A stretch of DNA of 64,000 bases from Minisyncoccota bacterium (GTDB lineage: Bacteria > Patescibacteriota > Minisyncoccia > Phycocordibacterales > JACRKE01): the NCBI GenBank assembly GCA_041660505.1, contig JBAZWG010000001.1:179979-243978 (forward strand). The letters run 5' to 3'. Under the pieces are notes generated by a model that saw nothing but the letters and a program-made list of their open reading frames with translations, did no database searches and had not been told where the DNA came from. Of this stretch, positions 2,000 through 62,484 are shown in pieces (the stretch's first letter is position 1; each line of letters opens with the position of its first letter). The position numbers were made by a program, and so were the translations under genes.

Positions 2000-3847
2000 C
2001 TACTTCATCACCTTCAAGAAGACGTCGTGCGGGATGTTTACCACTCCCATCGCTTTCATCTTCTTCTTGCCTTTCTTCTGCTTTTCGCGGAGTTTCATTT
2101 TGCGCGTGATGTCGCCGCCGTACAGGTAGTCTGTGACATCCTTCTTCATACCCGACAAATGGCGTGACGACAAGATGCGCCCGCCGGCCTTGGCCTGGAT
2201 CTTGAAGTCGAACATCTGTCGTGGGATGACATTCTTAATCTTCTCAACAATCTCTTCGGCCTCCTTTTGCAGACGTGCCCGAGAGACAATACGTGAGAAC
2301 GCGGGCACAACTTCATCGGCAATAAGCACCTCAACCTTGATAACGTCAGCCTCGCGCATATCGGCGAAGGTATAAGCTATGGACGCATAACCGGAAGTGA
2401 CGCTTTTAATCTCGTCGAAGAAGTTGCGCATTAGCTCGCGCAAAGGTATCTGAATAGATAATGCCGTACGATGATCGCCGAATATTTCTGTATTCACAAC
2501 CGTCGCCTCATGTTCATGGAAGAGCTGGACGAGCGAGCCCATATATTCCGGCGGGGTTATAATCTGCGCATCCACCCAGCGCTCATACACCTTCTCAATC
2601 TGCGACTCTTCGGGGAAGGCCGTTGCGGAATAGACCTTTTCTCTTGTTCCGTTAGTTCGCTGGATTTCGTAACTAATAGTCGGTGAAGTGATTATGAGTT
2701 CCAGATTAAATTCACGTCTTAATCTTTCTGAAATAATTTCGAGATGCAACATGCCGAGAAATCCGCAACGAAATCCCCTGCCGACAGCCCCTGCCGCTTC
2801 TTCTTCGAAGGAGAGTGCGGAGTCTTGCAAGCGCAATCGCTCAAGCGCTTGGCGGAGCGTCATGAAGTCGTCTTGATTCTCCGGATAGACCGATGCCCAG
2901 ACTACAGGCCGCGGCTCGCTATAGCCCGGCAGGGGCGCAAGTGGTCGTGAGGCTGTGGTAATAGTATCGCCGACGCGCGCGGCGCCGGTCTTCTTGATGC
3001 CGGTCACCAAATATCCGATCTCACCGGGCGATAGCATTTCGCACGGTTTCTTTTGCGGAGAAAAGATCCCGAGCTCCAGCACGGTAAATTGGTCTTTACC
3101 GGCAATGAATGCAAGCGCGTCCTTTTTGTGGATCATGCCGTCTATGACACGAACGTACACTATGAGTCCGGCATGAATATCGTATTCGAAGTCGAAGACT
3201 AGCGAACGGCTGGAATTGAGCGGGAAAGGTCTCTCCTCAGCTTCAGGCAGAGGTGGGTCCTTGCCCACGTCCGACTGCGGAGCAGGAACACGCTCAATAA
3301 CCGCGTCCAAAATTTCTAAAACGCCGGCGCCGGTCTTGCCAGAAGCGGCCAAAATATCTTTCTCTTCGCAATGCAAAAGTTCGATAATCTCCGCCTTTAC
3401 TTCCTCAACTTGCGCAACAGCAAGATCTATCTTGTTAATAACAGGAATTATCTTTACCCCCAATGCCTGCGCGGTGCGAAGTGTCGTTAAGGTCTGGGCC
3501 TGCACACCTTGCGTCGCATCTACAAGGAGTATCGCGCCTTCAACGGCCTGCAGTGCTCGCGAAACCTCGTAAGAGAAGTCGATATGCCCGGGCGTGTCAA
3601 TGAGGTTGAGTTCATAGGAGTTAGAAGTTGGGAGATCTCCTAACTTCTGTTTGTACTGCATCCGCACCGGTTGCATCTTGATGGTAATCCCCCGTTCCCT
3701 TTCCAGATCCATCATATCGAGTACCTGCTCTTTCATCTTGCGCTTCTCGATGGTCCCTGTGAGCTCCAACATGCGGTCCGCCAAGGTTGACTTACCGTGG
3801 TCAATGTGAGCGATTATTGAGAAGTTGCGTATATGCGCAGTATCCAT
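2000..3847 (-). CDS. lepA: elongation factor 4 (LepA)
   Basis: 615 aa. N-terminal GTPase motifs AHIDHGKST, DTPGH and NKID are present, and the C-terminal LepA-specific domain spans the full length. Confidence 0.95.
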   Translation of the reverse strand: MDTAHIRNFSIIAHIDHGKSTLADRMLELTGTIEKRKMKEQVLDMMDLERERGITIKMQPVRMQYKQKLGDLPTSNSYELNLIDTPGHIDFSYEVSRALQAVEGAILLVDATQGVQAQTLTTLRTAQALGVKIIPVINKIDLAVAQVEEVKAEIIELLHCEEKDILAASGKTGAGVLEILDAVIERVPAPQSDVGKDPPLPEAEERPFPLNSSRSLVFDFEYDIHAGLIVYVRVIDGMIHKKDALAFIAGKDQFTVLELGIFSPQKKPCEMLSPGEIGYLVTGIKKTGAARVGDTITTASRPLAPLPGYSEPRPVVWASVYPENQDDFMTLRQALERLRLQDSALSFEEEAAGAVGRGFRCGFLGMLHLEIISERLRREFNLELIITSPTISYEIQRTNGTREKVYSATAFPEESQIEKVYERWVDAQIITPPEYMGSLVQLFHEHEATVVNTEIFGDHRTALSIQIPLRELMRNFFDEIKSVTSGYASIAYTFADMREADVIKVEVLIADEVVPAFSRIVSRARLQKEAEEIVEKIKNVIPRQMFDFKIQAKAGGRILSSRHLSGMKKDVTDYLYGGDITRKMKLREKQKKGKKKMKAMGVVNIPHDVFLKVMK

Positions 3848-3886
3848 CGCACCAGAATACTCTAAATAAGGCCAAAATACAATTTC

Positions 3887-3905
3887 TAGAAGGCCTCGCC
3901 TTCTA
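3887..3905. repeat. 19-nt hairpin TAGAAGGC-CTC-GCCTTCTA (REP-like), copy 1
   Basis: Perfect 8-bp stem with a 3-nt loop. Identical copies occur at 4560-4578 and 5693-5711. This copy overlaps the stop codon of the Y1 transposase. Confidence 0.8.
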
Positions 3906-4529
3906 TTTATGGTCTATGGTTATGTGGTTTATCGCCGAAAAGTCGTGCTGGCCTGTGATCCACCTGCGATAATCTTTTGGAAGTTCAGTAAAATCATTAA
4001 GAGCTTCTGCCGTAAGGATTTTATCGTACTTTTTCTGATTGCAAAAATCGTGATAGCTTGACCATCGGTACTCGCTCAAATGTTCAATCTCTCGAGGGTT
4101 TAGGTGAATATAGTCGATTACTCCGAGCAAGTATTCTTCGTCGTCAACTAACTTACTTTTAAACGGTCCTTGGAAAAGCGCTCCGCTCCTATCATTCTTT
4201 TCATTAAAGTACATTGTATACGCCGTACCCAACCTTTGCATAAATCTGCTGATTCCCCCTTCTCGACATTCATGCAGAAGCAAATGGAAATGATTGGGCA
4301 TCAAACAGAATGCGACAACGTCTGCAAGTCGCTCCTTTTTCTCATCTTCTTCTGCCCTTTGAGAAAGGACTTCGAATGTATTGGGACTTTGAACTTCTGT
4401 GTCGTTTAAAACTTGGAGATACAAGAGAAATCTTTTGTAGTCTTTATCCTCCTCAAAAATAACACGCTTATCAACGCCGCGATTGTATACATGATGAAAT
4501 GAATCCTCTTCAATTGGTGCGCGATCCAT
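3903..4529 (-). CDS. IS200/IS605-family Y1 HUH transposase, REP-associated (RAYT/COG1943-like)
   Basis: Motifs HVYNRGVDKRVIF, HUH-like MPNHFHLLL, FNEKNDRSGALFQGPF and C-terminal YIHLNP...EYRWSSY match the COG1943/RAYT family as recalled. The gene is flanked by identical hairpins. Confidence 0.75.
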   Translation of the reverse strand: MDRAPIEEDSFHHVYNRGVDKRVIFEEDKDYKRFLLYLQVLNDTEVQSPNTFEVLSQRAEEDEKKERLADVVAFCLMPNHFHLLLHECREGGISRFMQRLGTAYTMYFNEKNDRSGALFQGPFKSKLVDDEEYLLGVIDYIHLNPREIEHLSEYRWSSYHDFCNQKKYDKILTAEALNDFTELPKDYRRWITGQHDFSAINHITIDHK

Positions 4530-8409: not shown

Positions 8410-8785
8410 ACAAAAGACCCCTTGCGGGGCCCCTTGGCATGCGATAAGCCGAATTCTGTTTGGATATTCATTTATCTAGGCTCTATATTACTATAGGGCT
8501 CAAGCGGCACTCTGGCCGGAACTTTAACTCCGATGTTAAGGTCTCTCCTCCTCATGGGAGGTGAGACCTTTAGCTGTCAACATCGGATGTTAAAGTTCCG
8601 GCCAGCACGGCCTTGCACTCACGTAGGAATTTTGCCGTTTCAGCCGGACTTAACCGGGTCGTTTCTGTTCTCATCCCTATGATTACTCACGACGGGCGTT
8701 ACCCGCTACGCGTACCCACTAAAGGGTTAAGTGTTCGGACTTTCCTCATCCCGCCGAGGCGGGACGCGAATATCTCGCATACTTG
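8410..8785 (-). ncRNA. rnpB: RNase P RNA, bacterial type A
   Basis: Minus strand contains the P4 5' strand GAGGAAAGUCCGAACAC. It also carries GGUAACGCC, ACAGAAAC, and a 3' region CCUAGAUAAAUGAAUAUCCAAACAGAAUUCGGCUUAUCGC, which matches E. coli M1 CCUAGAUGAAUGACUGUCCACGACAGAACCCGGCUUAUCGG as recalled. P1 pairing is UAUGCGA/UCGCAUG. A terminator CCCCGCAAGGGG + UUUUGUUUU follows. Confidence 0.85.
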
Positions 8786-14413: not shown

Positions 14414-14500
14414 CGGATCGGGTGGGATTCGAACCCACGAGACTATTGCTAGTCTGGCAGTTTAGTAAACTGCTGCCTTCAACCACTCGGCCACCGATCC
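14414..14500 (-). tRNA. type-II (long variable arm) tRNA, Ser-like, nominal anticodon ACU
   Basis: Reverse complement GGAUCGG-UG-GCCGAGUGGUUGAAGGC-A-GCAGU-UUACUAA-ACUGC-CAGACUAGCAAUAGUCUCG-GUGGGUUCGAAUCCCAC-CCGAUCC-G. The acceptor pairs fully. The D-arm is Ser-like. The anticodon loop UUACUAA gives ACU in place of the usual GCU. Confidence 0.7.
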
Positions 14501-14573
14501 TTGCGAATTACCAGACTATCACATTTACCGGCTAGAAAAAAGGTGGAAATAATGCTAGATTTATCAAGTATTT

Positions 14574-14662
14574 GGAGCCGTGGTGGAGTGGTCTAACATA
14601 CCTCTTTGCTAAAGAGGCGGCCGGGTAAAACTGGCCCGCGAGTTCGAATCTCGCCGGCTCCG
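14574..14662 (+). tRNA. tRNA-Ser (anticodon GCU)
   Basis: GGAGCCG-UG-GUGGAGUGGUCUAACAU-A-CCUCU-UUGCUAA-AGAGG-CGGCCGGGUAAAACUGGCCCG-CGAGUUCGAAUCUCG-CCGGCUCC-G. Type II with a long variable arm. Confidence 0.9.
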
Positions 14663-26219: not shown

Positions 26220-26312
26220 ATTACAAAGCAGAATTGGAGAATTTAGGAATTTGAGAATTAGGGAATATTCTTAAATTCTAAAATTCTTTAATTCATAAAT
26301 TCTGTCAGAATT

Positions 26313-28121
26313 TTGATCAATTTTCATTTTTTGGAGTCTTTATCGCGCAAGTACGACGAGTTCGGAAAGGCGCTTGCTCCCAAGTCAAAAGCGGGTAAAA
26401 AAATATACGACTTCTTCGGCTATTTCTCTTTGAAAGAAAGATTGGCTTTTTATGTTCTGCTTTTAATTTTCCTCATGAGCTTCGGACTTTTGGTAAAAAA
26501 GCTTAATGATATGATTACGGTTGAGGTGCCTCTCTTCGGCGGAACACTGCGCGAGGGTATCGTGGGCATTCCGCGTTTTAGTAATCCCGTTCTGGCCTCG
26601 AGCGACGTGGATAAGGATGTGGCGAGCCTTATTTATTCCGGCCTTATGCGCGTCGGGTCAGAAGGCAAACTAATCCCCGATCTGGCAGAAAATTATTCCG
26701 TATCTCCAGACGGTCTTACATATACTTTCGTTCTTAAGAAGAATCTTGTATTCCATGACGGGAGCAAGCTCTCGAGTGCCGACGTCGCCTATACTATCAA
26801 TCAAGTTAAGAATCCGATTTTCAAAAGTCCTCGCGGAGCGGCTTGGAGCGGAATCAATATAGAAACTCCCGACGACCTAACTGTTGTGTTCCATCTCAAA
26901 TCTCCTTACGCACTCTTCCTCGAAAGTACGACGTTGGGAATACTCCCGAAAAGTTTATGGAAGAAGACGAATGACGAGACATTCCCCTATAACGAGCTTA
27001 ATCTAGCGGGCGTCGGTTCCGGACCATACAAAGTGGTGAATGTTGCAAAAAATAAAGACAGCGTACCAACAGTATTGACACTCACTGCGTTTAACTCTTT
27101 CACGCTTGCCAAGCCTTATATCAAGAACATCAAACTGTACTTCTACGCGAATGAAGAGGCACGGTCTGCCGCTTATGGAGCCGGTTATATAGACACACTC
27201 TCCGGCATCACAGCGGAGGATGTGGGGGCACTTAACACGGGCAAAGGTCACATAGTCTCATTCTATCTCCCAAGAATCTTCGCCGTGTTCTTCAATCAAA
27301 ACCAAGAATCTGCCTTCACTTACCGTGAGGTTCGCGCAGCACTCGACGCTTCGCTCGATAAAGAAGCCATTACTCGTACCGTGCTTCATGATTATGGCAA
27401 CGCGATAAACGGCACGATTCCGCCGGGTTCGTTCGGCTACGCGAGCAGTACCAATCCTATAAAAGATCAGCCGGCACGCATCGCAAGCGCCCAAGCCCTA
27501 CTGCAACAGAACGGTTGGAATAAAGTTGGCGGAGTTTACCAAAAGAAGTTTACCGGCGACCCTAAGAAAAAGAGTAGTTCGACGGTCGTCTCTCTCGCCT
27601 TCTCTATTTCTACGGCAGACACGCCGGAACTCAAGCGGACAGCAGAACTGATTCGAGACACGTGGAACAGCCTTGGCGCAAAAGTCGAGCTCAAGGTATA
27701 TGAGATCGGCGACTTGAATCAAAACGTCATTCGTCCTCGCAATTTCGATGCGTTATTCTTCGGCGAGATTGTCGGCCGCAACCCCGACCCATTCTTCTAC
27801 TGGCATTCGTCGGAACGCGCCGACCCGGGACTCAATATCGCCATGTACGCAAACCCAGCCGTTGATAAGCTTGTAGACAGCATTCGTGCCAGCGCATCCG
27901 ACAGCGACCGACTAGACAAGCTCCGCAAACTGGACACAGCAATAAAGCGCGACCAGCCGGCTTCATTCATATATGCGCCACAATACATTTATCTTATTAA
28001 TAATCGGGTGCGAGGAGTGACGCCGATGTCTCTCACGACACCCAATGAAAGATTCTCTAATATCTACACCTGGTACATCGATACCGAAAGAGTGTGGAAG
28101 ATTTTTACTAAACAGAATTAA
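26313..28121 (+). CDS. ABC transporter substrate-binding protein, family 5 (peptide/nickel)
   Basis: SBP_bac_5-like sequence throughout. The N-terminal TM anchor is reached from a TTG start. The true start is uncertain (an internal ATG at MSFGLL is possible). Confidence 0.7.
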   Translation: MINFHFLESLSRKYDEFGKALAPKSKAGKKIYDFFGYFSLKERLAFYVLLLIFLMSFGLLVKKLNDMITVEVPLFGGTLREGIVGIPRFSNPVLASSDVDKDVASLIYSGLMRVGSEGKLIPDLAENYSVSPDGLTYTFVLKKNLVFHDGSKLSSADVAYTINQVKNPIFKSPRGAAWSGINIETPDDLTVVFHLKSPYALFLESTTLGILPKSLWKKTNDETFPYNELNLAGVGSGPYKVVNVAKNKDSVPTVLTLTAFNSFTLAKPYIKNIKLYFYANEEARSAAYGAGYIDTLSGITAEDVGALNTGKGHIVSFYLPRIFAVFFNQNQESAFTYREVRAALDASLDKEAITRTVLHDYGNAINGTIPPGSFGYASSTNPIKDQPARIASAQALLQQNGWNKVGGVYQKKFTGDPKKKSSSTVVSLAFSISTADTPELKRTAELIRDTWNSLGAKVELKVYEIGDLNQNVIRPRNFDALFFGEIVGRNPDPFFYWHSSERADPGLNIAMYANPAVDKLVDSIRASASDSDRLDKLRKLDTAIKRDQPASFIYAPQYIYLINNRVRGVTPMSLTTPNERFSNIYTWYIDTERVWKIFTKQN

Positions 28122-28192
28122 AGAATTTCAGAATTTAGGAATTTAATTCATTCTTACATTCTCATATTCTTTAATTCATAAATTCCGTTAAC

Positions 28193-30133
28193 ATGGAACC
28201 ACAGCAACCAAAAAAATTCGTGCCCCAAGCGGCACGCGCGTTCGTTTCTGATGCACCTGCCCGCCATACCTTCGGCAAGTCGATGGCAGGCGGGCCAGCG
28301 CCACGGCGCGCGCCGATGCGTAAACAAACGTCCGTACGTCCGCGCCGAGAGCGTGGTCCGCAACACCGCTCACAACCGGCAAGCAGTCGACCGCACCATG
28401 AACGACATGACCAGGGTGAAGAAGAAAAGAAAAAGAAGGTGATCATTCCGCCGCTCGCGACGGACAGTATCCGCATCATTCCCTTGGGAGGCGTAGAGGG
28501 TGTCGGCATGAACATGACCGTCGTCGAATTTAATGGCGACATCTTCATTGTGGACGCTGGCTTCATGTTCCCAGGCGAGGACTCCCCCGGCGTCGACTAC
28601 ATCATCCCCGATGTCACCTATCTCGAAGAACGCAAGGATAAGATTCGTGGCATCTTCATCACCCACGGCCACTTGGACCACATCGGCAGTCTCCCTTACA
28701 TCATGCAAAAGTTGGGCAACCCGCCGGTCTACACGCGCCTCTTCGGCGCTATGATGATTAAGAAGCGCCAGGCCGAATTCCCCCAGATCCCGATGCCGGA
28801 CCTGCGCATCGTCGAGACCAACAGTCGCGTCAAGGCCGGCAATACTTACGTAAGGTTCTCTAACGTCACCCATACGATTCCGGATTCGATGTGCATAATT
28901 ATAGAGAGTCCTTGGGGCAATCTGCTCTTCATGGGCGATCTCAAGGTAGACCACATCGACCAAGTACCGCTGCCATCGGAGGTCAAGCTCTACACCGAGC
29001 TCGGCAAAGAGAATAATCTCTTCATGGCCGGCGACTCGACCAATACCCACAAGCCCGGCTGGTCCGACTCCGAGACGACAGTGCGCGAGAACTTGCGCGA
29101 GATCGTCCGTACCGCCAAGGGCCGCCTCATCATGGGTACCTTCGCGTCACTAGTCGACCGCGTTATTTACGTCATCACCGAGGCGGAGAAGATGGGCAAG
29201 AAGGTGATTATCGATGGCCGCGGCATGCGTGAATCAATTGAGATCGCTACCGAGCTTGGCCGAGTCAAGATGCAACCGGGCACAATAATCCCCGTAGAGG
29301 AAGTCGACAACTATCCGCCCGATCGCATCCTCATCATGGCGACCGGCGCGCAGGCGGATGAATATTCATCTCTCCAACGCATGTCGATCAAGACGCACAA
29401 ATATCTCAAGCTCCACAAAGGCGACACCATCGTGCTGTCGTCATCCGTAATTCCTGGCAACGAGAAGGGTGTGGAAATCTTGAAGGACAACCTCTCCCGC
29501 CAAGGTGCCAAGATAATCCATTATCGTCTCAAAGACGTGCACTCTTCCGGCCACGCCTACGGCGACGAGGCGACGTGGTTATACAAAATGGTCAAACCCA
29601 AATTCTTTATGCCGGTGCACGGTGGCCACTACATGCTCCGCATGCACGAGGAGGTGGCCATCGGCGCGGGCATCAAGCCCGAGAACATCGCCGTGCCGGA
29701 CAACGGTTCGATTGTCGAAATAACGGGTGGTGGTAAGAAGATTCATATATTAAAAGAAAAAGCACCGATAGACATGGTCATGGTGGACGCCATGGGCGAT
29801 GGCGCCGGCGTGCACGAGCTGGTCATCCGTGACCGCAAGGTCTTGGCCGAGGACGGCATGTTCGTCATCATCGCAACAATCGACGTCAAGACCGGCAAGC
29901 TCCGCCAATCCCCCGACATCATCTCGCGCGGCTTCGTCTATCTTAAAGAATCGCGCGAATTGTTAAAAGAAGTCCGCGGCCTCATTAAGAAGACAATAGA
30001 AAGTGTGACGGTAGATATGCACCCAATAAATATAGACTACGTGAAAAATCTGGTCAGAGAAAAAACCGGCCGCTTCCTCCTCCAAAAAACCCGCAAGCGC
30101 CCGATAATCCTGCCGGTCTTAATCGAGGTGTAA
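28193..30133 (+). CDS. rnj: ribonuclease J
   Basis: Metallo-beta-lactamase motif HGHLDHIG plus beta-CASP and RMMBL regions. There is an approximately 90-aa Arg/His-rich low-complexity N-terminal extension. Confidence 0.9.
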   Translation: MEPQQPKKFVPQAARAFVSDAPARHTFGKSMAGGPAPRRAPMRKQTSVRPRRERGPQHRSQPASSRPHHERHDQGEEEKKKKVIIPPLATDSIRIIPLGGVEGVGMNMTVVEFNGDIFIVDAGFMFPGEDSPGVDYIIPDVTYLEERKDKIRGIFITHGHLDHIGSLPYIMQKLGNPPVYTRLFGAMMIKKRQAEFPQIPMPDLRIVETNSRVKAGNTYVRFSNVTHTIPDSMCIIIESPWGNLLFMGDLKVDHIDQVPLPSEVKLYTELGKENNLFMAGDSTNTHKPGWSDSETTVRENLREIVRTAKGRLIMGTFASLVDRVIYVITEAEKMGKKVIIDGRGMRESIEIATELGRVKMQPGTIIPVEEVDNYPPDRILIMATGAQADEYSSLQRMSIKTHKYLKLHKGDTIVLSSSVIPGNEKGVEILKDNLSRQGAKIIHYRLKDVHSSGHAYGDEATWLYKMVKPKFFMPVHGGHYMLRMHEEVAIGAGIKPENIAVPDNGSIVEITGGGKKIHILKEKAPIDMVMVDAMGDGAGVHELVIRDRKVLAEDGMFVIIATIDVKTGKLRQSPDIISRGFVYLKESRELLKEVRGLIKKTIESVTVDMHPINIDYVKNLVREKTGRFLLQKTRKRPIILPVLIEV

Positions 30134-30196: not shown

Positions 30197-31159
30197 CTAA
30201 AGCATTTCCTGTAACTTCTGTGTATTTCCGTGCTTTAGCAACCCGAGATAGGATTGCAGGGTAGCTGGATTGTGTAGCTTTTTCTGCAAGTTTCTAAACA
30301 TCCGTTTCTTCGTCGTCGTGCGCAGTACCCGGTGATCGGGAAAATGCACCCATCCCAGGAAGTCGACGCCAGAAGCAAGTGTAGCGATAGAAACCTTGTT
30401 CGGATGCAATGAAAGCTTGAGCATTATATTCAGAAAATCAGAAATTTGGGGAATGAGTTGTTCGAGTAATGTTTTGTCATCAGAAAGAAAGACAAAATCA
30501 TCTGCATAACGAATGTAATGCTTTACTTTTAGTTTGTGTTTCACATACTGATCGAACTCGTCCATGTAAATATTCACTAAAAGTTGCGAGGTCAGATTAC
30601 CGAGCGGCAGACCGGTTTGAAAACTTGAAATTACTTTCTCAAGCAACCACTGGACGTTCTCGTCAGAAATATATTCTGCAAGAATGCTAAAAATAATCTG
30701 GTGGTTGATGTTCGCAAAGAACTTGCGTATGTCGCATTTGAGTACCCAGCAGGTACGGGTATTATTCTTGGACATCCGATGTCCAAATTCTTCAAATCGC
30801 TTGAGTGCCTTGTGAGTTCCCTTTCGTAACCGACAAGAGTATGAGTCAGATATAAAAGTCCCGTCGAAGAAGGGATAGAGTTTGCGGTAGAGCGCGTGAT
30901 GTAATAACCTGTCGCGCACCGACGCCTTATGAATATCGCGAGGCTTGGGGTCATTAATTTTGAAGTGCTCATAGTGGCCGTGCATATAGGTAAAACTTTT
31001 CAATTCTCGATGAAGAGTCAAGATATTGTGCAGTAAATGTAACTGAAAAACTTGCACGTCGGCTTTCGTCTTTTTATCTCGAACAAAGTTTTGCCACGCA
31101 AATAACAAATTCTTTACGGAAATGATCTCTTCATAGCTAGTTGTAAACTTTTTTCTCAT
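30197..31159 (-). CDS. DGR reverse transcriptase
   Basis: RT motifs in order: RPRDIHKASVRDRLLHHAL, CDIRKFFANINH, GLPLGNLTSQLLVNIYM (the DGR-type [LI]GxxxSQ signature replacing QGxxxSP) and YIRYADDFVFL. 320 aa, with no maturase or endonuclease domains. Confidence 0.85.
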   Translation of the reverse strand: MRKKFTTSYEEIISVKNLLFAWQNFVRDKKTKADVQVFQLHLLHNILTLHRELKSFTYMHGHYEHFKINDPKPRDIHKASVRDRLLHHALYRKLYPFFDGTFISDSYSCRLRKGTHKALKRFEEFGHRMSKNNTRTCWVLKCDIRKFFANINHQIIFSILAEYISDENVQWLLEKVISSFQTGLPLGNLTSQLLVNIYMDEFDQYVKHKLKVKHYIRYADDFVFLSDDKTLLEQLIPQISDFLNIMLKLSLHPNKVSIATLASGVDFLGWVHFPDHRVLRTTTKKRMFRNLQKKLHNPATLQSYLGLLKHGNTQKLQEML

Positions 31160-31202
31160 ATGGTAGCTTTTTTAATTATGCAAAATCAAAACCTTAAAAG
31201 TA

Positions 31203-31213
31203 CCCCCCCCCCC
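31203..31213. repeat. homopolymeric C11 tract (G11 on the RT strand)
   Basis: taCCCCCCCCCCCgcaac, 44-54 nt upstream of the RT ATG, in the divergent RT/avd intergenic region. Confidence 0.9.
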
Positions 31214-31281
31214 GCAACACCCTGCCGCTTATTACGAAAGTAAAAGCAGTCTATATTTTGTGGCTTCCGGTTCATAAGAAT

Positions 31282-31584
31282 ATGCCAAGGCTCGAACGAT
31301 TTGGCCTTGGCGCGACCATCGAGAAAACTTTTCTTGATCTGCTCAATACGCTTCGCAAAGCTGCCTACGCAGACACGACTCATAAGTTACCGTTGCTTGA
31401 AGAAGCGATTGACGCGGTAGACTGCTTACGTTTCTTTTTACAGCTCGCATGGGAAACCAAGACTATCTCGCACAAACATCTTGCAATCATCGGCGAAGGC
31501 ATCGAGGAAGTTGGGCGCATGATCGGCGGATGGCGAAAAGGCCTGCTTACGAAAACCTCCACAACGCGTGCGGAGGAAAGATAA
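31282..31584 (+). CDS. avd: DGR accessory variability determinant (Avd)-like four-helix-bundle protein
   Basis: ORF 31258..31584 with likely start MPRLERFGLG. Motifs LRFFLQLAW and EEVGRMIGGWRKG resemble bAvd (LRFWLRFLA / AEVGRILGSW) as recalled. The gene is on the opposite strand from the RT and TR. Confidence 0.6.
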   Translation: MPRLERFGLGATIEKTFLDLLNTLRKAAYADTTHKLPLLEEAIDAVDCLRFFLQLAWETKTISHKHLAIIGEGIEEVGRMIGGWRKGLLTKTSTTRAEER

Positions 31585-31588
31585 GGGT

Positions 31589-31693
31589 AGCGGGAGACGA
31601 CCTGATTGCCGTCGTTCCACCTGTTCGGGTTCTCGACCGAGTTCGCGTTGACGTTCCAGCCGTTGCCGGAGTTCCAGTTCGCGTTCACGACCC
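31589..31693 (-). repeat. DGR1 template repeat (TR)
   Basis: 105-nt match to 32058-32162. All 17 mismatches are T on the plus strand here (A on minus). TT doublets correspond to AAC (Asn) codons in minus sense. Confidence 0.8.
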
Positions 31694-32055
31694 AGAGAAA
31701 CAAGCGCCACGCACCGTGCAGACTGCCATCCGTGCCACTGTTCTTTGAGTTCTTTTGGAATACTCGCCGAGCTGTATCGTGTCTGGGACATTCAAAGTCC
31801 GCCAGCAATCTGCACCGATCCTCACTCTTTTTTAGAGCTTGCTGTATCCACACTTGGTGCAGGCGTACCCGCACTAATTCTCGAATACAGGGATGCGAGG
31901 CCCTCTGCACAAGCCGTAGCCGGTGCAATGGAGTGGCCTTAACTTGAGAAGCTAGCATATGTAGATAAAAAACAAAACCCCCCGATACCTGCCGCCAAAG
32001 CGACAAAGTGTCAGAGGGCTTAAGAAGAAAGAATAAGTGACCGAGGTAAACAGGA

Positions 32056-32787
32056 TCAGCGGGAGACGACCTGAAGGCCGACGCTCCACCTGAGCGGGCC
32101 CTCGACCGAGCGCGCGAGGACGTACCAGCCGTTGCCGGAGTCCCAGCCCGCGCTCACGAACCAGAGAACGCCATTTTCGTCCTCGACATACGCGATGTTC
32201 GCGTAGCCGTTGACGAGGAGCGGGCCAGTCTCTCCGCGGGGCTGCTGCAACAGCATACCCCAGAAGTGGGCTAGCTTGATGACCCGGCGAGCTTCATCGA
32301 GCTCGCTCATGATTTCGGGATCGAGTGAGGAACGGAGGAGGGTGTGGCAGCGCAGCTCGGCCTTCTCGACGTCGGTCTCGATCTTGTTCGAGAAGTTCGC
32401 CTTGAAGTTGTCGCCCAGGTAGTAGATCTGGACGGCGGCCTTCGCGGAGGTGTCGAGCTTGAAGTGCTTCTTCACTTCGAACTTGTCGTAGGACGGCACG
32501 ATGGTCGTGCCTTCGACGAGCTTGAGCCGCGGCTGCGCGGGCGGTGCGGATGGCGAGACAACCTCGGGCTTGACGACGAGCGTCTTGCCCGAGTTGATGG
32601 CTGCACACGCGTCCGCCATCTGTTCCCGCACGGACTTCTTGTCCTTGTGCGCGAGCGCCGCCTGTTGCTCAGGCGTAAGCTTGCCGAGGAGTTCGGCGGC
32701 GAGGAGGAGTCGCGCATTTGCGATCTTCCCCGCGAGGTCGTAGGACGCTCCGCGTCCTCGGGTGTCGGGCAATCCCTTTCTGGGCAT
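32056..32787 (-). CDS. DGR1 target protein (C-type-lectin-like C-terminus carrying VR)
   Basis: Start set at MPRKGLPD, with SD GGAAGGAGGTG 5 nt upstream. The C-terminus ...WFVSAGWDSGNGWYVLARSVEGPLRWSVGLQVVSR is encoded by the VR and ends at the stop. No signal peptide. Confidence 0.7.
   Translation of the reverse strand: MPRKGLPDTRGRGASYDLAGKIANARLLLAAELLGKLTPEQQAALAHKDKKSVREQMADACAAINSGKTLVVKPEVVSPSAPPAQPRLKLVEGTTIVPSYDKFEVKKHFKLDTSAKAAVQIYYLGDNFKANFSNKIETDVEKAELRCHTLLRSSLDPEIMSELDEARRVIKLAHFWGMLLQQPRGETGPLLVNGYANIAYVEDENGVLWFVSAGWDSGNGWYVLARSVEGPLRWSVGLQVVSR
32058..32162 (-). repeat. DGR1 variable repeat (VR)
   Basis: Homologous to TR1, with A/G/C at the 17 positions where TR1 has T (plus strand). 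It abuts the target stop codon. Confidence 0.8.
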
Positions 32788-32981
32788 TGGACACCTCCTT
32801 CCCACACAGCGGTGGGGTACACGGTAAATGATAGTCTTGCAACCGAGCAAGTATCATTAACCGCGATCACTTATCGGTTTTCAATATAGCGAAGCTGCCG
32901 TATAATTTAGCATACTCTTTCGATATATGTCAATAGCAGTTATCCAGAACTAATTTTGTCACCGCGCGATATAATAGAGAT

Positions 32982-53143: not shown

Positions 53144-54139
53144 TTAGCCAATTGTTTTTTGTATGCCATGTCCATTGCAATGTTTGAGTAGCCCGACATA
53201 TGACTGTATTACATCAGGATTATATTCTTTTCCTACTATATTCCGAAACATTCGTTTTTTAGTCTTTGTTCGCAAAATGCGATGATTTGGAAACTGCACA
53301 TAACCGAGAAAATCAATTCCTTGCCGTAGTTTAGAAATCGAAACTTTTTTCGGATGAAGTGAGAGCTTTAGTTTTTCTTGCAAAAAAACGTTGACACGAG
53401 GCAATAAAGCCTCAAGCTCTGTATGACTTTGTGAAAGTATAACGAAATCATCGCAGTAACGAATGTAGTACTTTTGTTTAAGGATATGTTTTACGAACTG
53501 ATCCAGCTCATTCAGGTACACATTGGCAAACAGTTGGCTCGTCACATTGCCGAGCGGTATTGCCTTGCCTTGTATTTTTTCAAAACTGCCGATGATTTTT
53601 TTGATTAGCCACTTAGTATCTTCTCCGTGGATAACATGAGACAGTAGTCTAAGCAAAATTTCGTGATCGATAGTATCGAAAAACTTGCGAATATCGCATT
53701 TGAGCACATACGCGAGCTGATTATTATTCGCACTAACTCTTCGGCCGAACGCATGCAGTCGCTCGACTCCCGCATGCGTTCCCTTGCGAAACCGGCATGA
53801 GTAGGAGTCGAAGATAAAATGCTGATCGAATTGGTGATACAAGACTCGGAAAATTGCTTGGTGTAGTACGCGATCAAAGACCGTTGCTTTGTGGATGTGC
53901 CGGAGTTTCGGATCGCGGACGTAGAACGCTTCATACCGGCCGGTCTCGTATGTTTTGTTTTTTAGCTGTTCGTGGAGCAAAAACAGATTATCTTCGAGTC
54001 GGAATTCAAATTCCTGAACGTCTTGCTTTTTCGTCTTGCCTCGTTTAAACTCGCGCCATGCGGCAAATAGATTTTCGAGTGAAATAATCCGTTCAAATAC
54101 ATGATCGAAAATTCCACTAATAAGACCCCCCCCCGGCAC
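53144..54139 (-). CDS. DGR reverse transcriptase (paralog)
   Basis: Motifs CDIRKFFDTIDH, AIPLGNVTSQLFANVYL (the [LI]GxxxSQ signature) and YIRYCDDFVIL. The GTG start is immediately followed by an in-frame G9 tract encoding PGGG. Confidence 0.85.
   Translation of the reverse strand: MPGGGLISGIFDHVFERIISLENLFAAWREFKRGKTKKQDVQEFEFRLEDNLFLLHEQLKNKTYETGRYEAFYVRDPKLRHIHKATVFDRVLHQAIFRVLYHQFDQHFIFDSYSCRFRKGTHAGVERLHAFGRRVSANNNQLAYVLKCDIRKFFDTIDHEILLRLLSHVIHGEDTKWLIKKIIGSFEKIQGKAIPLGNVTSQLFANVYLNELDQFVKHILKQKYYIRYCDDFVILSQSHTELEALLPRVNVFLQEKLKLSLHPKKVSISKLRQGIDFLGYVQFPNHRILRTKTKKRMFRNIVGKEYNPDVIQSYVGLLKHCNGHGIQKTIG
54126..54134. repeat. homopolymeric C9 tract (G9 on the RT strand) at the RT2 5' end
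   Basis: agaCCCCCCCCCgg, located in codons 2-5 of the RT2 ORF as called and 70 nt from the avd2 ATG. Confidence 0.9.
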
Positions 54140-54206
54140 TCTCCAAATCCCCTTGGTTCATAAGATTCGTGAAGTATATCGGAGTTTATATATTGTCGGC
54201 AAGCGG

Positions 54207-54491
54207 ATGCCGAAGCGAGATAGGTTCGGAATATACCAACAGCTCGAGACGTTAGTCTTGCTCTGTCTGCGGATTGCTATTACGGCCGCCTTATCAAAAC
54301 CGGAACAAAAGCCTCCTTTCATAACACGCTTGCGTATTGAAATTGAAGTATGCAAACAGCTTATCCGCGTGGCACACGAATTGGGCAGTATTGAGCAGAA
54401 AGATTATTTGATGTTATCAGAATTCCTTATCGAATGTTCCAAGATGTCCTATAAGTGGCTTGAGTCTCTAACCAAAAAGGAGCCGCAGTAA
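54207..54491 (+). CDS. avd: Avd-like four-helix-bundle protein (paralog)
   Basis: ORF 54153..54491 (TTG) with likely start MPKRDRFGIY, paralleling avd1 MPRLERFGLG. It is divergent from RT2. Confidence 0.6.
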   Translation: MPKRDRFGIYQQLETLVLLCLRIAITAALSKPEQKPPFITRLRIEIEVCKQLIRVAHELGSIEQKDYLMLSEFLIECSKMSYKWLESLTKKEPQ

Positions 54492-54513
54492 TGCGACTCC
54501 GCTTGGCGAGACT

Positions 54514-54626
54514 ATCTCACGGGTACGCAGGTTCTCGTTCGCATTGTCCGTGTTGTACCAGTTGACGTTCAGCTTGTCGTAGTTCCAGTTCACGTTCGGG
54601 ACGTTGCCGTCGGAATTGCGCGAGCC
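54514..54626 (-). repeat. DGR2 template repeat (TR)
   Basis: 113-nt match to 54934-55046. All 19 mismatches are T (plus strand), so A on the minus strand. Confidence 0.8.
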
Positions 54627-54922: not shown

Positions 54923-55642
54923 TTACGAAACGACCTCACGGGCACGCAGGTGCTCGTGCGCACCGTCCGCGTCGTACCAGTGGACGCTCAGCTTGCCGTA
55001 GTACCAGTACACGAGCGGGACGTAGCCGCCGGAATAGCGCGAGCCCGAGCACAGCGTGATGTTCACGCTGTCCAAATGCTTCCCCGTTTCGAGGAAGTAC
55101 TTGAGCTCCAGGTCAAGGCGCTCGGGCAAGCTGATGCCCTGTACCTTCTTGTCCTCGAGGTCGTTGGCGGAGCAGTTCTTCCACTCGGCGTCTGCCTCAA
55201 CGCCGTCCCGCACCCAGATGGCGTGGGGCTTTTCGGTGCCGAAACGGTCGTTCCGCGTCACCGACGCGTCGAGGTCGGCCGTGTAGCGCCAGCAGGTGAA
55301 CTGCTTGGCGCAGACGTCGAACCTCCGGTTGATGGTGACGCCCGGTGCCTCGATGATGAGGCGACCGAAGCCCGGACGCGTGACGGGGATGGCGAGCTCA
55401 CGCAGGTCGAGTTTGACCTTGTAGAGATCGCCCCAATAGGCAATCCACGGGGTGAGCAACTTCTTGCGTGCCCGCCCGCCGAGCGCGCGCGGCCCCGTGC
55501 CTGCGCGCTCGAGCTTGAACGGGTTCCGACGCTGGAGGAAGAGCTTGACCTCTTCCTCGCTCAAGGCACCCGCCTTGAGCTTCGCCGTGAAGTCGACCAA
55601 AAGGTCGAACTTCGTGTTGTTACCGGCCTGTCCGTCAGACAT
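54923..55642 (-). CDS. DGR2 target protein (C-type-lectin-like C-terminus carrying VR)
   Basis: SD AGGAGG precedes the ATG by 6 nt. The C-terminus ...SGSRYSGGYVPLVYWYYGKLSVHWYDADGAHEHLRAREVVS is encoded by the VR. Confidence 0.7.
   Translation of the reverse strand: MSDGQAGNNTKFDLLVDFTAKLKAGALSEEEVKLFLQRRNPFKLERAGTGPRALGGRARKKLLTPWIAYWGDLYKVKLDLRELAIPVTRPGFGRLIIEAPGVTINRRFDVCAKQFTCWRYTADLDASVTRNDRFGTEKPHAIWVRDGVEADAEWKNCSANDLEDKKVQGISLPERLDLELKYFLETGKHLDSVNITLCSGSRYSGGYVPLVYWYYGKLSVHWYDADGAHEHLRAREVVS
54934..55046 (-). repeat. DGR2 variable repeat (VR)
   Basis: A/G/C at the 19 positions where TR2 has T (plus strand). Confidence 0.8.
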
Positions 55643-62409: not shown

Positions 62410-62484
62410 TGGAGCCGCCTCTCGGATTTGAACCGAGGACCCACGCTTTACAAAAGCGTTGCTCTACCACTGAGCTAAGGCGGC
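62410..62484 (-). tRNA. tRNA-Thr (anticodon UGU)
   Basis: Reverse complement GCCGCCU-UA-GCUCAGUGGUAGAGC-A-ACGCU-UUUGUAA-AGCGU-GGGUC-CUCGGUUCAAAUCCGAG-AGGCGGC-U-CCA. Confidence 0.9.

Follow-up and report, generated by a model that had tools for sequence, protein, structure and literature searches.

A simple-sequence repeat at the RT/avd junction of Patescibacteria DGRs: a candidate phase switch on avd

Two DGRs lie in the window, by which we mean the whole 64-kb stretch of DNA that was analysed (49% GC), and in both of them a long run of G or C occupies the junction at which the RT and avd genes, encoded on opposite strands, meet at their 5' ends. This arrangement raises the question of what the run does and on which of the two genes it acts. 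A preliminary description of the locus had taken it for a slipped-strand contingency tract that switches the DGR through its RT. Comparative evidence from related loci supports a tract of this kind; however, the gene that it would control is mostly avd, and the mechanism differs from the one first proposed.

The two DGRs and their homopolymeric tracts

DGR1 and DGR2 are genuine DGRs, each having an RT, a TR/VR pair and an Avd-type gene. RT1 and RT2 gave RVT_1 matches of 87 and 83 bits, are 54% identical to each other, and in a homologue search had thousands of DGR-type RT homologues in Patescibacteria. All TR/VR mismatches in DGR1 and DGR2 fall at TR adenines, and VR forms the 3' end of the target gene. 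The homologue search also placed the organism in Patescibacteria (Ca. Paceibacterota). Both accessory genes match Pfam bAvd; avd2 scored 38.8 against a gathering cut-off of 40, yet it aligns with the Avds of the family. In both DGRs, avd is located on the opposite (plus) strand, between TR and RT. We refer to loci at which the RT starts downstream of the tract as type A and to those at which the RT reads through the tract as type B. The features of the two elements, with coordinates given in the window, are as follows.

DGR1
30197-31159, minus strand: RT1, 320 aa, RVT_1, with its own ATG 43 nt downstream of the tract (type A)
31178-31202, plus strand: avd1 leader ORF, MQNQNLKST..., with a second ATG at 31160 in the same frame
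31203-31213, C11 on the plus strand and G11 on the minus strand: simple-sequence repeat SSR1, within the avd1 5' coding region (Pro codons)
31216-31584, plus strand: avd1 body, with helix 1 (TLPLITKVKAVYILW) encoded at 31216-31260
31556-31576, minus strand: GC hairpin with T-run, directly 3' of TR1 and over the avd1 3' end
31589-31699, minus strand: TR1, from the TR/VR comparison
32056-32850, minus strand: DGR1 target gene, with VR1 at 32058-32168

DGR2
53144-54161, minus strand: RT2, type B; at G9, the assembled length, the frame is open from GTG 54139-54137 (331 aa, 53144-54139)
54101-54125, plus strand: avd2 leader ORF, MIENSTNKT..., whose ATG is antisense to the RT2 His codon CAT 54103-54101
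54126-54134, C9 on the plus strand and G9 on the minus strand: simple-sequence repeat SSR2, within the 5' coding regions of avd2 and RT2
54135-54491, plus strand: avd2 body, GTLQIPLVHKIREVY..., with TTG 54153 as a possible tract-independent internal start
54479-54500, minus strand: GC hairpin with T-run, directly 3' of TR2 and over the avd2 3' end
54507-54626, minus strand: TR2, from the TR/VR comparison
54923-55642, minus strand: DGR2 target gene, with VR2 at 54926-55045

The hairpin and T-run stand 7-13 nt past the TR 3' end in both DGRs, over the avd stop region, and could be a terminator of the TR RNA or the equivalent of the spacer RNA to which Avd binds in the Bordetella phage DGR. Elsewhere in the window, a bacterial class A RNase P RNA and four tRNA genes (8433-8782, 998-1068, 14414-14662 and 62413-62484) are consistent with a cellular rather than a phage location of the DGRs. 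Two 8-nt-periodic, AT-rich repeat arrays (ATTCTTAA-like) were found at 26259-26321 and 28126-28196, just upstream of the genes for an SBP_bac_5 protein (26313-28121) and an RNase J-like protein (28193-30133), and are possibly promoter or regulator-binding arrays.

C11 and C9 stand exactly at the coordinates given in the preliminary description, and its statement that tracts of this length are rare by chance also holds, as these are the only G/C runs of at least 7 nt in the window and the next longest is 6. It had further placed the two tracts at equivalent positions in paralogous elements. The same position is occupied in DGR3 and DGR4 of the same genome (L081 and L082), each of which carries C11 in the same context, AAAAGTA-C11-GAAAC; all four DGRs of the genome have a tract at the RT/avd junction. 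The 719-kb contig that holds the window encodes at least two further RT paralogues.

On the RT strand, the G11 of DGR1 lies 44-54 nt upstream of the RT1 ATG (31159), a position compatible with the proposal that the tract controls the RT, as a promoter spacer in DGR1 and as in-frame codons in DGR2, and leaves unaffected an avd that starts at ATG 31282 or ATG 54207. The DGR1 tract had been described as abutting a plausible -35; however, no sigma-70-like promoter hexamers were found flanking it, and a promoter-spacer switch of the fim/hif/opc type, in which the tract sits between -35 and -10, was rejected for DGR1. For RT1, the tract falls within the leader alone. In most relatives a -35/-10 spacer role is excluded, as the RT ATG is just 13 nt from the tract. 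The weak promoter-like site of DGR2 (54202-54173, minus strand), just upstream of ATG 54161, is at chance expectation.

Reading frames of avd and RT across the tract

The 122-nt divergent intergenic region that had been assumed between RT1 and avd1 is mostly avd coding sequence: avd coding runs through it, and the avd start had been placed 69-100 nt too far downstream. The conserved helix 1 of Avd (LPxLxKxKxAYxLW) starts 1-6 codons past the tract in all loci compared. In the window it is encoded from 31216 in avd1 and, as IPLVHKIREVY, from about 54147 in avd2, in both cases upstream of the ATGs at 31282 and 54207. An Avd made from either of these ATGs matches the Pfam bAvd profile at 21-106 only, without positions 1-20, which include helix 1; upstream-extended Avds reach profile positions 4-10, and repaired avd1 covers 10-106. 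As in contingency loci, the tract is found between the leader ATG and a conserved part of the protein, here helix 1, and in DGR2-type loci it is also inside the RT ORF.

The avd leader reads the tract as Pro-Pro-Pro. The avd1 leader is homologous to MENQNFKSTPPP / MENQNFKST of L082, MKSTPPP of L081, MRQLNFSHNTNSTPPP of L052 and MSQLNFSHTTNST of L013. Four loci have no slippery repeat, and all of them are in frame. L052 encodes MRQLNFSHNTNSTPPPLLPVVEK, including STPPPLLP by way of CCG CCG CCG, with its leader ATG in frame; in L030 and L060 avd is likewise in frame from the leader ATG; and in L065 the leader is absent and Avd starts MYLPVIEH. Because the repeat-free loci are in frame, we infer that the leader ATG is the start actually used by avd and that Pro-Pro-Pro is the in-frame reading, and L065 indicates that the leader is dispensable for the protein. 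These loci also count against an avd that starts at ATG 31282 or ATG 54207. Together with the loss of helix 1 and the lack of promoter hexamers beside the DGR1 tract, they make a tract acting on the RT, with avd unaffected, quite improbable as the general explanation, even though RT2 has no canonical start past G9 and 19 of 67 related loci have an RT that reads through the tract.

By eye, no Shine-Dalgarno sequence was evident ahead of the leader ATGs of the window. In 35 of 59 loci, among them DGR2 (TTG 54153 in avd2), an in-frame GTG or TTG follows the tract ahead of the helix-1 core, and a slightly shorter, tract-independent Avd might therefore be made. The argument that avd has no start downstream of the tract was dropped, as it is true for only 24 of the 59 loci. 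Gene callers are distorted by the overlap and the tract, which lie at the 5' ends and account for truncated avd and RT calls: the public call for RT1 (P0001) begins at an internal Met and has 262 aa, those for avd begin at internal starts and have 87-123 aa, and some RT calls are extended upstream through the tract (P0016, P0035, P0042 and P0118).

The position of the RT start divides the loci. An RT ATG is present downstream of the tract in 41 of 67, typically 13 nt past it, and just a GTG or TTG is present there in 7 of 67. The remaining 19 (~28%), including DGR2, have no RT start downstream, and in these the tract has to be translated as poly-Gly within the RT. In this genome DGR1, DGR3 and DGR4 are type A and DGR2 is type B. 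For RT2, no ATG, GTG or TTG exists downstream of the tract, a start whose presence would have removed G9 from the RT2 frame. The placement of G9 inside the RT2 ORF, after GTG 54139 and in frame as P-G-G-G, was thus well founded; the choice of GTG as the start was less so. The RT2 ATG (54161-54159) and the avd2 ATG (54101) are both in frame at G8 or G11, and comparison suggests ATG 54161 as the ancestral RT2 start, with GTG 54139 as a second start usable at G9.

At type B loci the upstream RT ATG and the avd leader ATG share a length class in 17 of 17 informative loci, including DGR2. Where only a single class is possible for each gene, the class is the same in 9 of 9 (p about 5e-5). Type A loci served as a control: an upstream RT ATG is open through the tract in 8 of 38, and its class matches that of avd in only 2 of these 8, so that the coupling of RT and avd is specific to tract-dependent RTs. 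In type B sequences, the ATG of either gene seems to lie antisense to, and codon-aligned with, a His codon (CAT) in the other. A second RT start, nearer the tract and in frame at the next length class, was observed in several type B loci (L014, L031, L049, L057 and L071), as it was in DGR2 (GTG 54139), and hints at three states, namely RT with Avd, RT only, and neither.

Conservation, replacement and length polymorphism of the repeat

We compared 80 loci of different species, almost all in Patescibacteria, whose RTs are related at about 60-66% identity. In the majority, a run of G6-G14 occurs no more than about 60 nt upstream of the conserved N-terminus of the RT. A census of G/C runs of at least 8 nt, covering the 75 loci of other species with enough flank, counted 61 in the junction windows (180 nt each, 13.5 kb together) and 3 in the flanks (452 kb), so that 61 of 64 runs lie at the junction, an enrichment of more than 100-fold. 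As is typical of a contingency locus, the repeat is over-represented at its site relative to the background, both in the window and in the 75 loci. A pattern scan of metagenomes for the tract context of DGR1, DGR3 and DGR4 yielded L113 (C11) as its one relevant contig; the other match, L112, was due to chance. In L026, G10 runs were also seen outside the RT/avd junction, at 3404 and 5253; the one at 3404 lies 14 nt into an ORF (3390-4304) directly downstream of the RT, and the genes that bear these runs may be further phase-variable genes.

The unit of the repeat is not constant. Poly-C is replaced by (CT)10 in L024, L061 and L075 and by (CCAG)10 in L055, while L069, a close relative of L055, has (TCAGCAA)10 at the same site. 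The substitute repeats have no sequence or peptide in common with poly-C, and they are on or off according to their register. Because unrelated repeat units occupy the same site, selection would be on mutability and not on the sequence or the peptide, and since units of 4 and 7 nt are sensible only as substrates of DNA slippage, the change of frame would take place at the DNA level.

These replacements bear directly on the possibility that the tract is a structural nucleic-acid element (a G-quadruplex, a protein-binding site or a structured TR-RT RNA) or encodes a required poly-proline or poly-glycine peptide. G11 and a nearby GGG could formally form a G-quadruplex, but neither the substitute repeats, (CT)n, (CCAG)n and (TCAGCAA)n, nor the loci that have no tract (L065 and L030) share a sequence or peptide with it. 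Furthermore, no Rfam family matched the tract region, and folding z-scores of -0.02 to 1.7 revealed no stable or stimulatory RNA structure there. We regard a structural or peptide role as scarcely credible.

An absence of function is likewise very unlikely in our judgement. A neutral unstable homopolymer, or an artefact of sequencing or assembly, in a non-coding gap would be in keeping with the error-prone lengths of homopolymers and with the scaffold breaks and N gaps at the tract in L040, L042, L066 and L068. It would not account for a run at the same site across RTs that are only about 60-65% identical, for the enrichment at the junction, for the other repeat types found there or for the RT/avd registers coupled in every informative type B locus, and neutral homopolymers decay by interruption. 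In the four MAGs just named, N gaps, scaffold breaks or poly-G/C garbage abut the tract, which fits either read-level length heterogeneity or poor sequencing through it.

The frame of the avd leader was determined across 61 species: 20 are in frame, 19 need +1 and 19 need -1, a distribution not different from uniform. This is the pattern expected from rapid drift in tract length. An untranslated tract would also give uniform frames; the repeat-free loci and the coupling of RT and avd argue against it.

A comparison of tract lengths in relatives, which the preliminary description had proposed, revealed that they vary among near-identical contigs. The P0075 population consists of 10 contigs from different samples with an identical 321-aa RT and at most 6 differences in 1,800 nt; its tract is G9 in four contigs, G10 in four and G11 in two. 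Only G9 gives a 138-aa Avd from the leader, and does so in three of the four G9 contigs, whereas the leader ORF of the G10 and G11 alleles is just 30 or 44 codons long. In the remaining G9 contig, L087, a second homopolymer, A7 versus A6, puts avd out of frame: at about 1470, 8 nt from the tract, the T6 (avd strand) in avd helix 1 is T7. The VR of this population has three haplotypes, and both common haplotypes each occur with G9, G10 and G11, so that the tract changes faster than the rest of the locus.

Two further observations were made in P0075. L085 has five A-to-N substitutions at about 1010-1042, within its TR (969-1091), where the nine sister contigs have A; they reflect either a TR/VR assembly chimera or template mutagenesis. 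An EF-P gene lies ~1.3 kb downstream of the RT (L085-L087 and L092, at about 3750-3966). Elongation factor P is needed for translating poly-proline, and its presence near a gene that encodes Pro-Pro-Pro is probably a coincidence.

In a second population with an identical RT, P0063, the lengths are G9, G10, G12 and G14. The adjoining 10-20 nt vary as well in its contigs (L099-L104), with TAAAGGG(G), for example, present or absent, and the junction is an indel hotspot. The tract is invariant in P0023 (3 contigs) and P0046 (4 contigs), and it is an invariant G8 in P0118, for which the lookup is biased since the exact-match RT call spans the tract. In P0075 and P0063, therefore, length differs among near-identical strains and shifts the frame, as in contingency loci, although some of the differences could be technical because homopolymers of 9-14 nt are error-prone in Illumina sequencing and assembly. 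The sole other assembly of this genome, Logan contig L084, was made from the same read set and is 100% identical, including G9 and VR; L083 stops within RT1, short of the tract.

Length differences at the DNA level on identical backgrounds also weigh against non-heritable recoding, in which slippage of RNA polymerase or of the ribosome (tRNA-Pro on CCC CCC C) would let the tract set a low level of Avd. RNA polymerase is prone to slip on long homopolymers, and CCC-C is known to be liable to frameshifting. Recoding would also accommodate the three equally common frame classes across species and the four copies in this genome that are out of frame yet otherwise intact. It does not explain the tetra- and heptanucleotide repeats of L055 and L069, which shift the frame at the DNA level only, and no stimulatory RNA structure was found at the tract. 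Programmed slippage or frameshifting at homopolymers is known from dnaX and IS elements, where, as here, a homopolymer in an ORF joins two frames. Those cases keep one register across species, whereas here no fixed out-of-frame register is conserved. A programmed frameshift or slippage site, with one conserved register and a slippery motif, was accordingly rejected on the 20/19/19 distribution and the substitution by 4- and 7-nt repeats. Recoding as the main role of the tract is unlikely in our view; slippage of RNA polymerase or the ribosome may nevertheless add leakiness to a switch at the DNA level, although it explains neither the 4- and 7-nt repeats nor the DNA polymorphism.

A candidate switch on Avd and its place among known systems

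We consider it probable that the tract is a slipped-strand phase switch on avd and, in DGR2-type loci, also on the RT; of the explanations weighed this is the best reading. It builds on the anatomy of the junction, its conservation, the reading-frame logic and the length polymorphism observed in relatives. The tract would be a hypermutable simple-sequence repeat in the avd 5' coding region. Translation of Avd would begin at the leader ATG, beside or antisense within the first RT codons, and proceed through Pro-Pro-Pro into helix 1. Slipped-strand mispairing at replication, by adding or removing one repeat unit, would bring the leader in or out of frame, so that full-length Avd would be made from one of three length classes, and mutagenic retrohoming would be turned on or off with Avd, heritably and reversibly. 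At type A loci (DGR1, DGR3 and DGR4) avd alone would be gated, the RT having its own downstream ATG. At a type B locus such as DGR2, the RT would be translated as poly-Gly through the tract, and RT and avd would be in frame at the same length.

The bRT of the Bordetella phage system is inactive as an RT by itself and depends on Avd (PMC6182149). Given this dependence, a reading-frame switch in avd would be expected to control both cDNA synthesis and retrohoming. Loss of Avd would stop the DGR in the organisms studied here too, and the length changes would be reversible events at the DNA level.

In the assembled genome, the avd leaders are out of frame in all four DGRs. C12 would be required in DGR1, DGR3 and DGR4, which have C11, and C8 in DGR2, which has C9. 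Read at C11, the avd1 leader runs into TAA 31241 after 21 codons; C12 or C9 would join it to the Avd frame. The avd2 leader, read at C9, runs into TAA 54161-54163 after 20 codons and would be joined to the Avd frame by C8 or C11. Because all four leaders are out of frame, the consensus state is probably 'diversification off'. RT2 is possibly still made from GTG 54139 at G9, and TTG 54153 could give a near-complete Avd2 whatever the tract.

Contingency loci with poly-G or poly-C in 5' coding regions include Neisseria pilC and lgt and the capsule and LOS genes of Campylobacter jejuni, and Haemophilus has comparable tetranucleotide-repeat genes. The tract described here resembles them in being a repeat in the 5' part of an ORF that toggles the frame by one unit, in its lengths of 8-14, in its polymorphism among near-identical strains and in the differing repeat units of orthologues. 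In logic it is a classic contingency locus. The difference lies in what is controlled: contingency loci gate a surface antigen or a modification enzyme, whereas here the gene is a cofactor of targeted hypermutation in uncultivated Patescibacteria. Moreover, the tract here is placed in a region common to two antisense 5' ends.

In Haemophilus influenzae, a (TA)n repeat in the overlapping divergent promoters of hifA and hifB sets the -35/-10 spacing. There, as here, one repeat controls two divergent genes of one system. The hifA/hifB switch is transcriptional, whereas in type B loci the repeat is inside both antisense-overlapping coding sequences, with matched registers, and control would be translational. 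Switchable mutators, in which repeat tracts or a prophage interrupt mutS or mutL, and phasevarions, with their phase-variable Mod methyltransferases, are similar in that a stochastic, reversible switch stands above a system that alters many phenotypes or the mutation supply. They act genome-wide, whereas a DGR mutates only the variable region of one target gene.

The DGR of Bordetella phage BPP-1 (avd-TR-brt) has in common with the present elements an RT, Avd, TR/VR and adenine-specific mutagenesis. The three components all point the same way in BPP-1, for which no repeat switch is described; in the present elements avd stands in the opposite orientation between TR and RT, its 5' end abuts or overlaps that of the RT, and the overlap contains the repeat. 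This layout corresponds to DGR clade 2 of Roux et al. (PMC8144416), which is restricted to Patescibacteria. Full-text searches of the literature and the main DGR surveys, a scope outside which the CPR DGR survey of Paul et al. (2017) lies, yielded no earlier description of such a switch and nothing on homopolymers, on phase variation or on an avd frameshift in DGRs.

On balance, we lean towards the broader view that DGRs of Patescibacteria may have a built-in, second-order switch of evolvability, formed by a repeat at the antisense avd/RT 5' overlap, which in about one quarter of loci would toggle both proteins and might allow an RT-only state. One repeat in two antisense-overlapping coding sequences with matched registers would be a rare natural case. 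The class of the tract could predict the activity of DGRs in metagenomes from sequence alone, and the design could be borrowed for gating engineered DGR mutagenesis.

The regulation of DGRs is largely unknown, as is the way in which a host avoids erasing a well-adapted variable protein. If the proposed switch is true, a heritable, stochastic switch on Avd, or on Avd and RT, would be a simple answer to both, and it would be common across a bacterial radiation that is dependent on surface contacts with host cells. Many CPR DGRs that have been scored as intact would then be genetically off in the population consensus, and a lineage would be able to lock a successful sequence of its variable protein and to reopen diversification stochastically.
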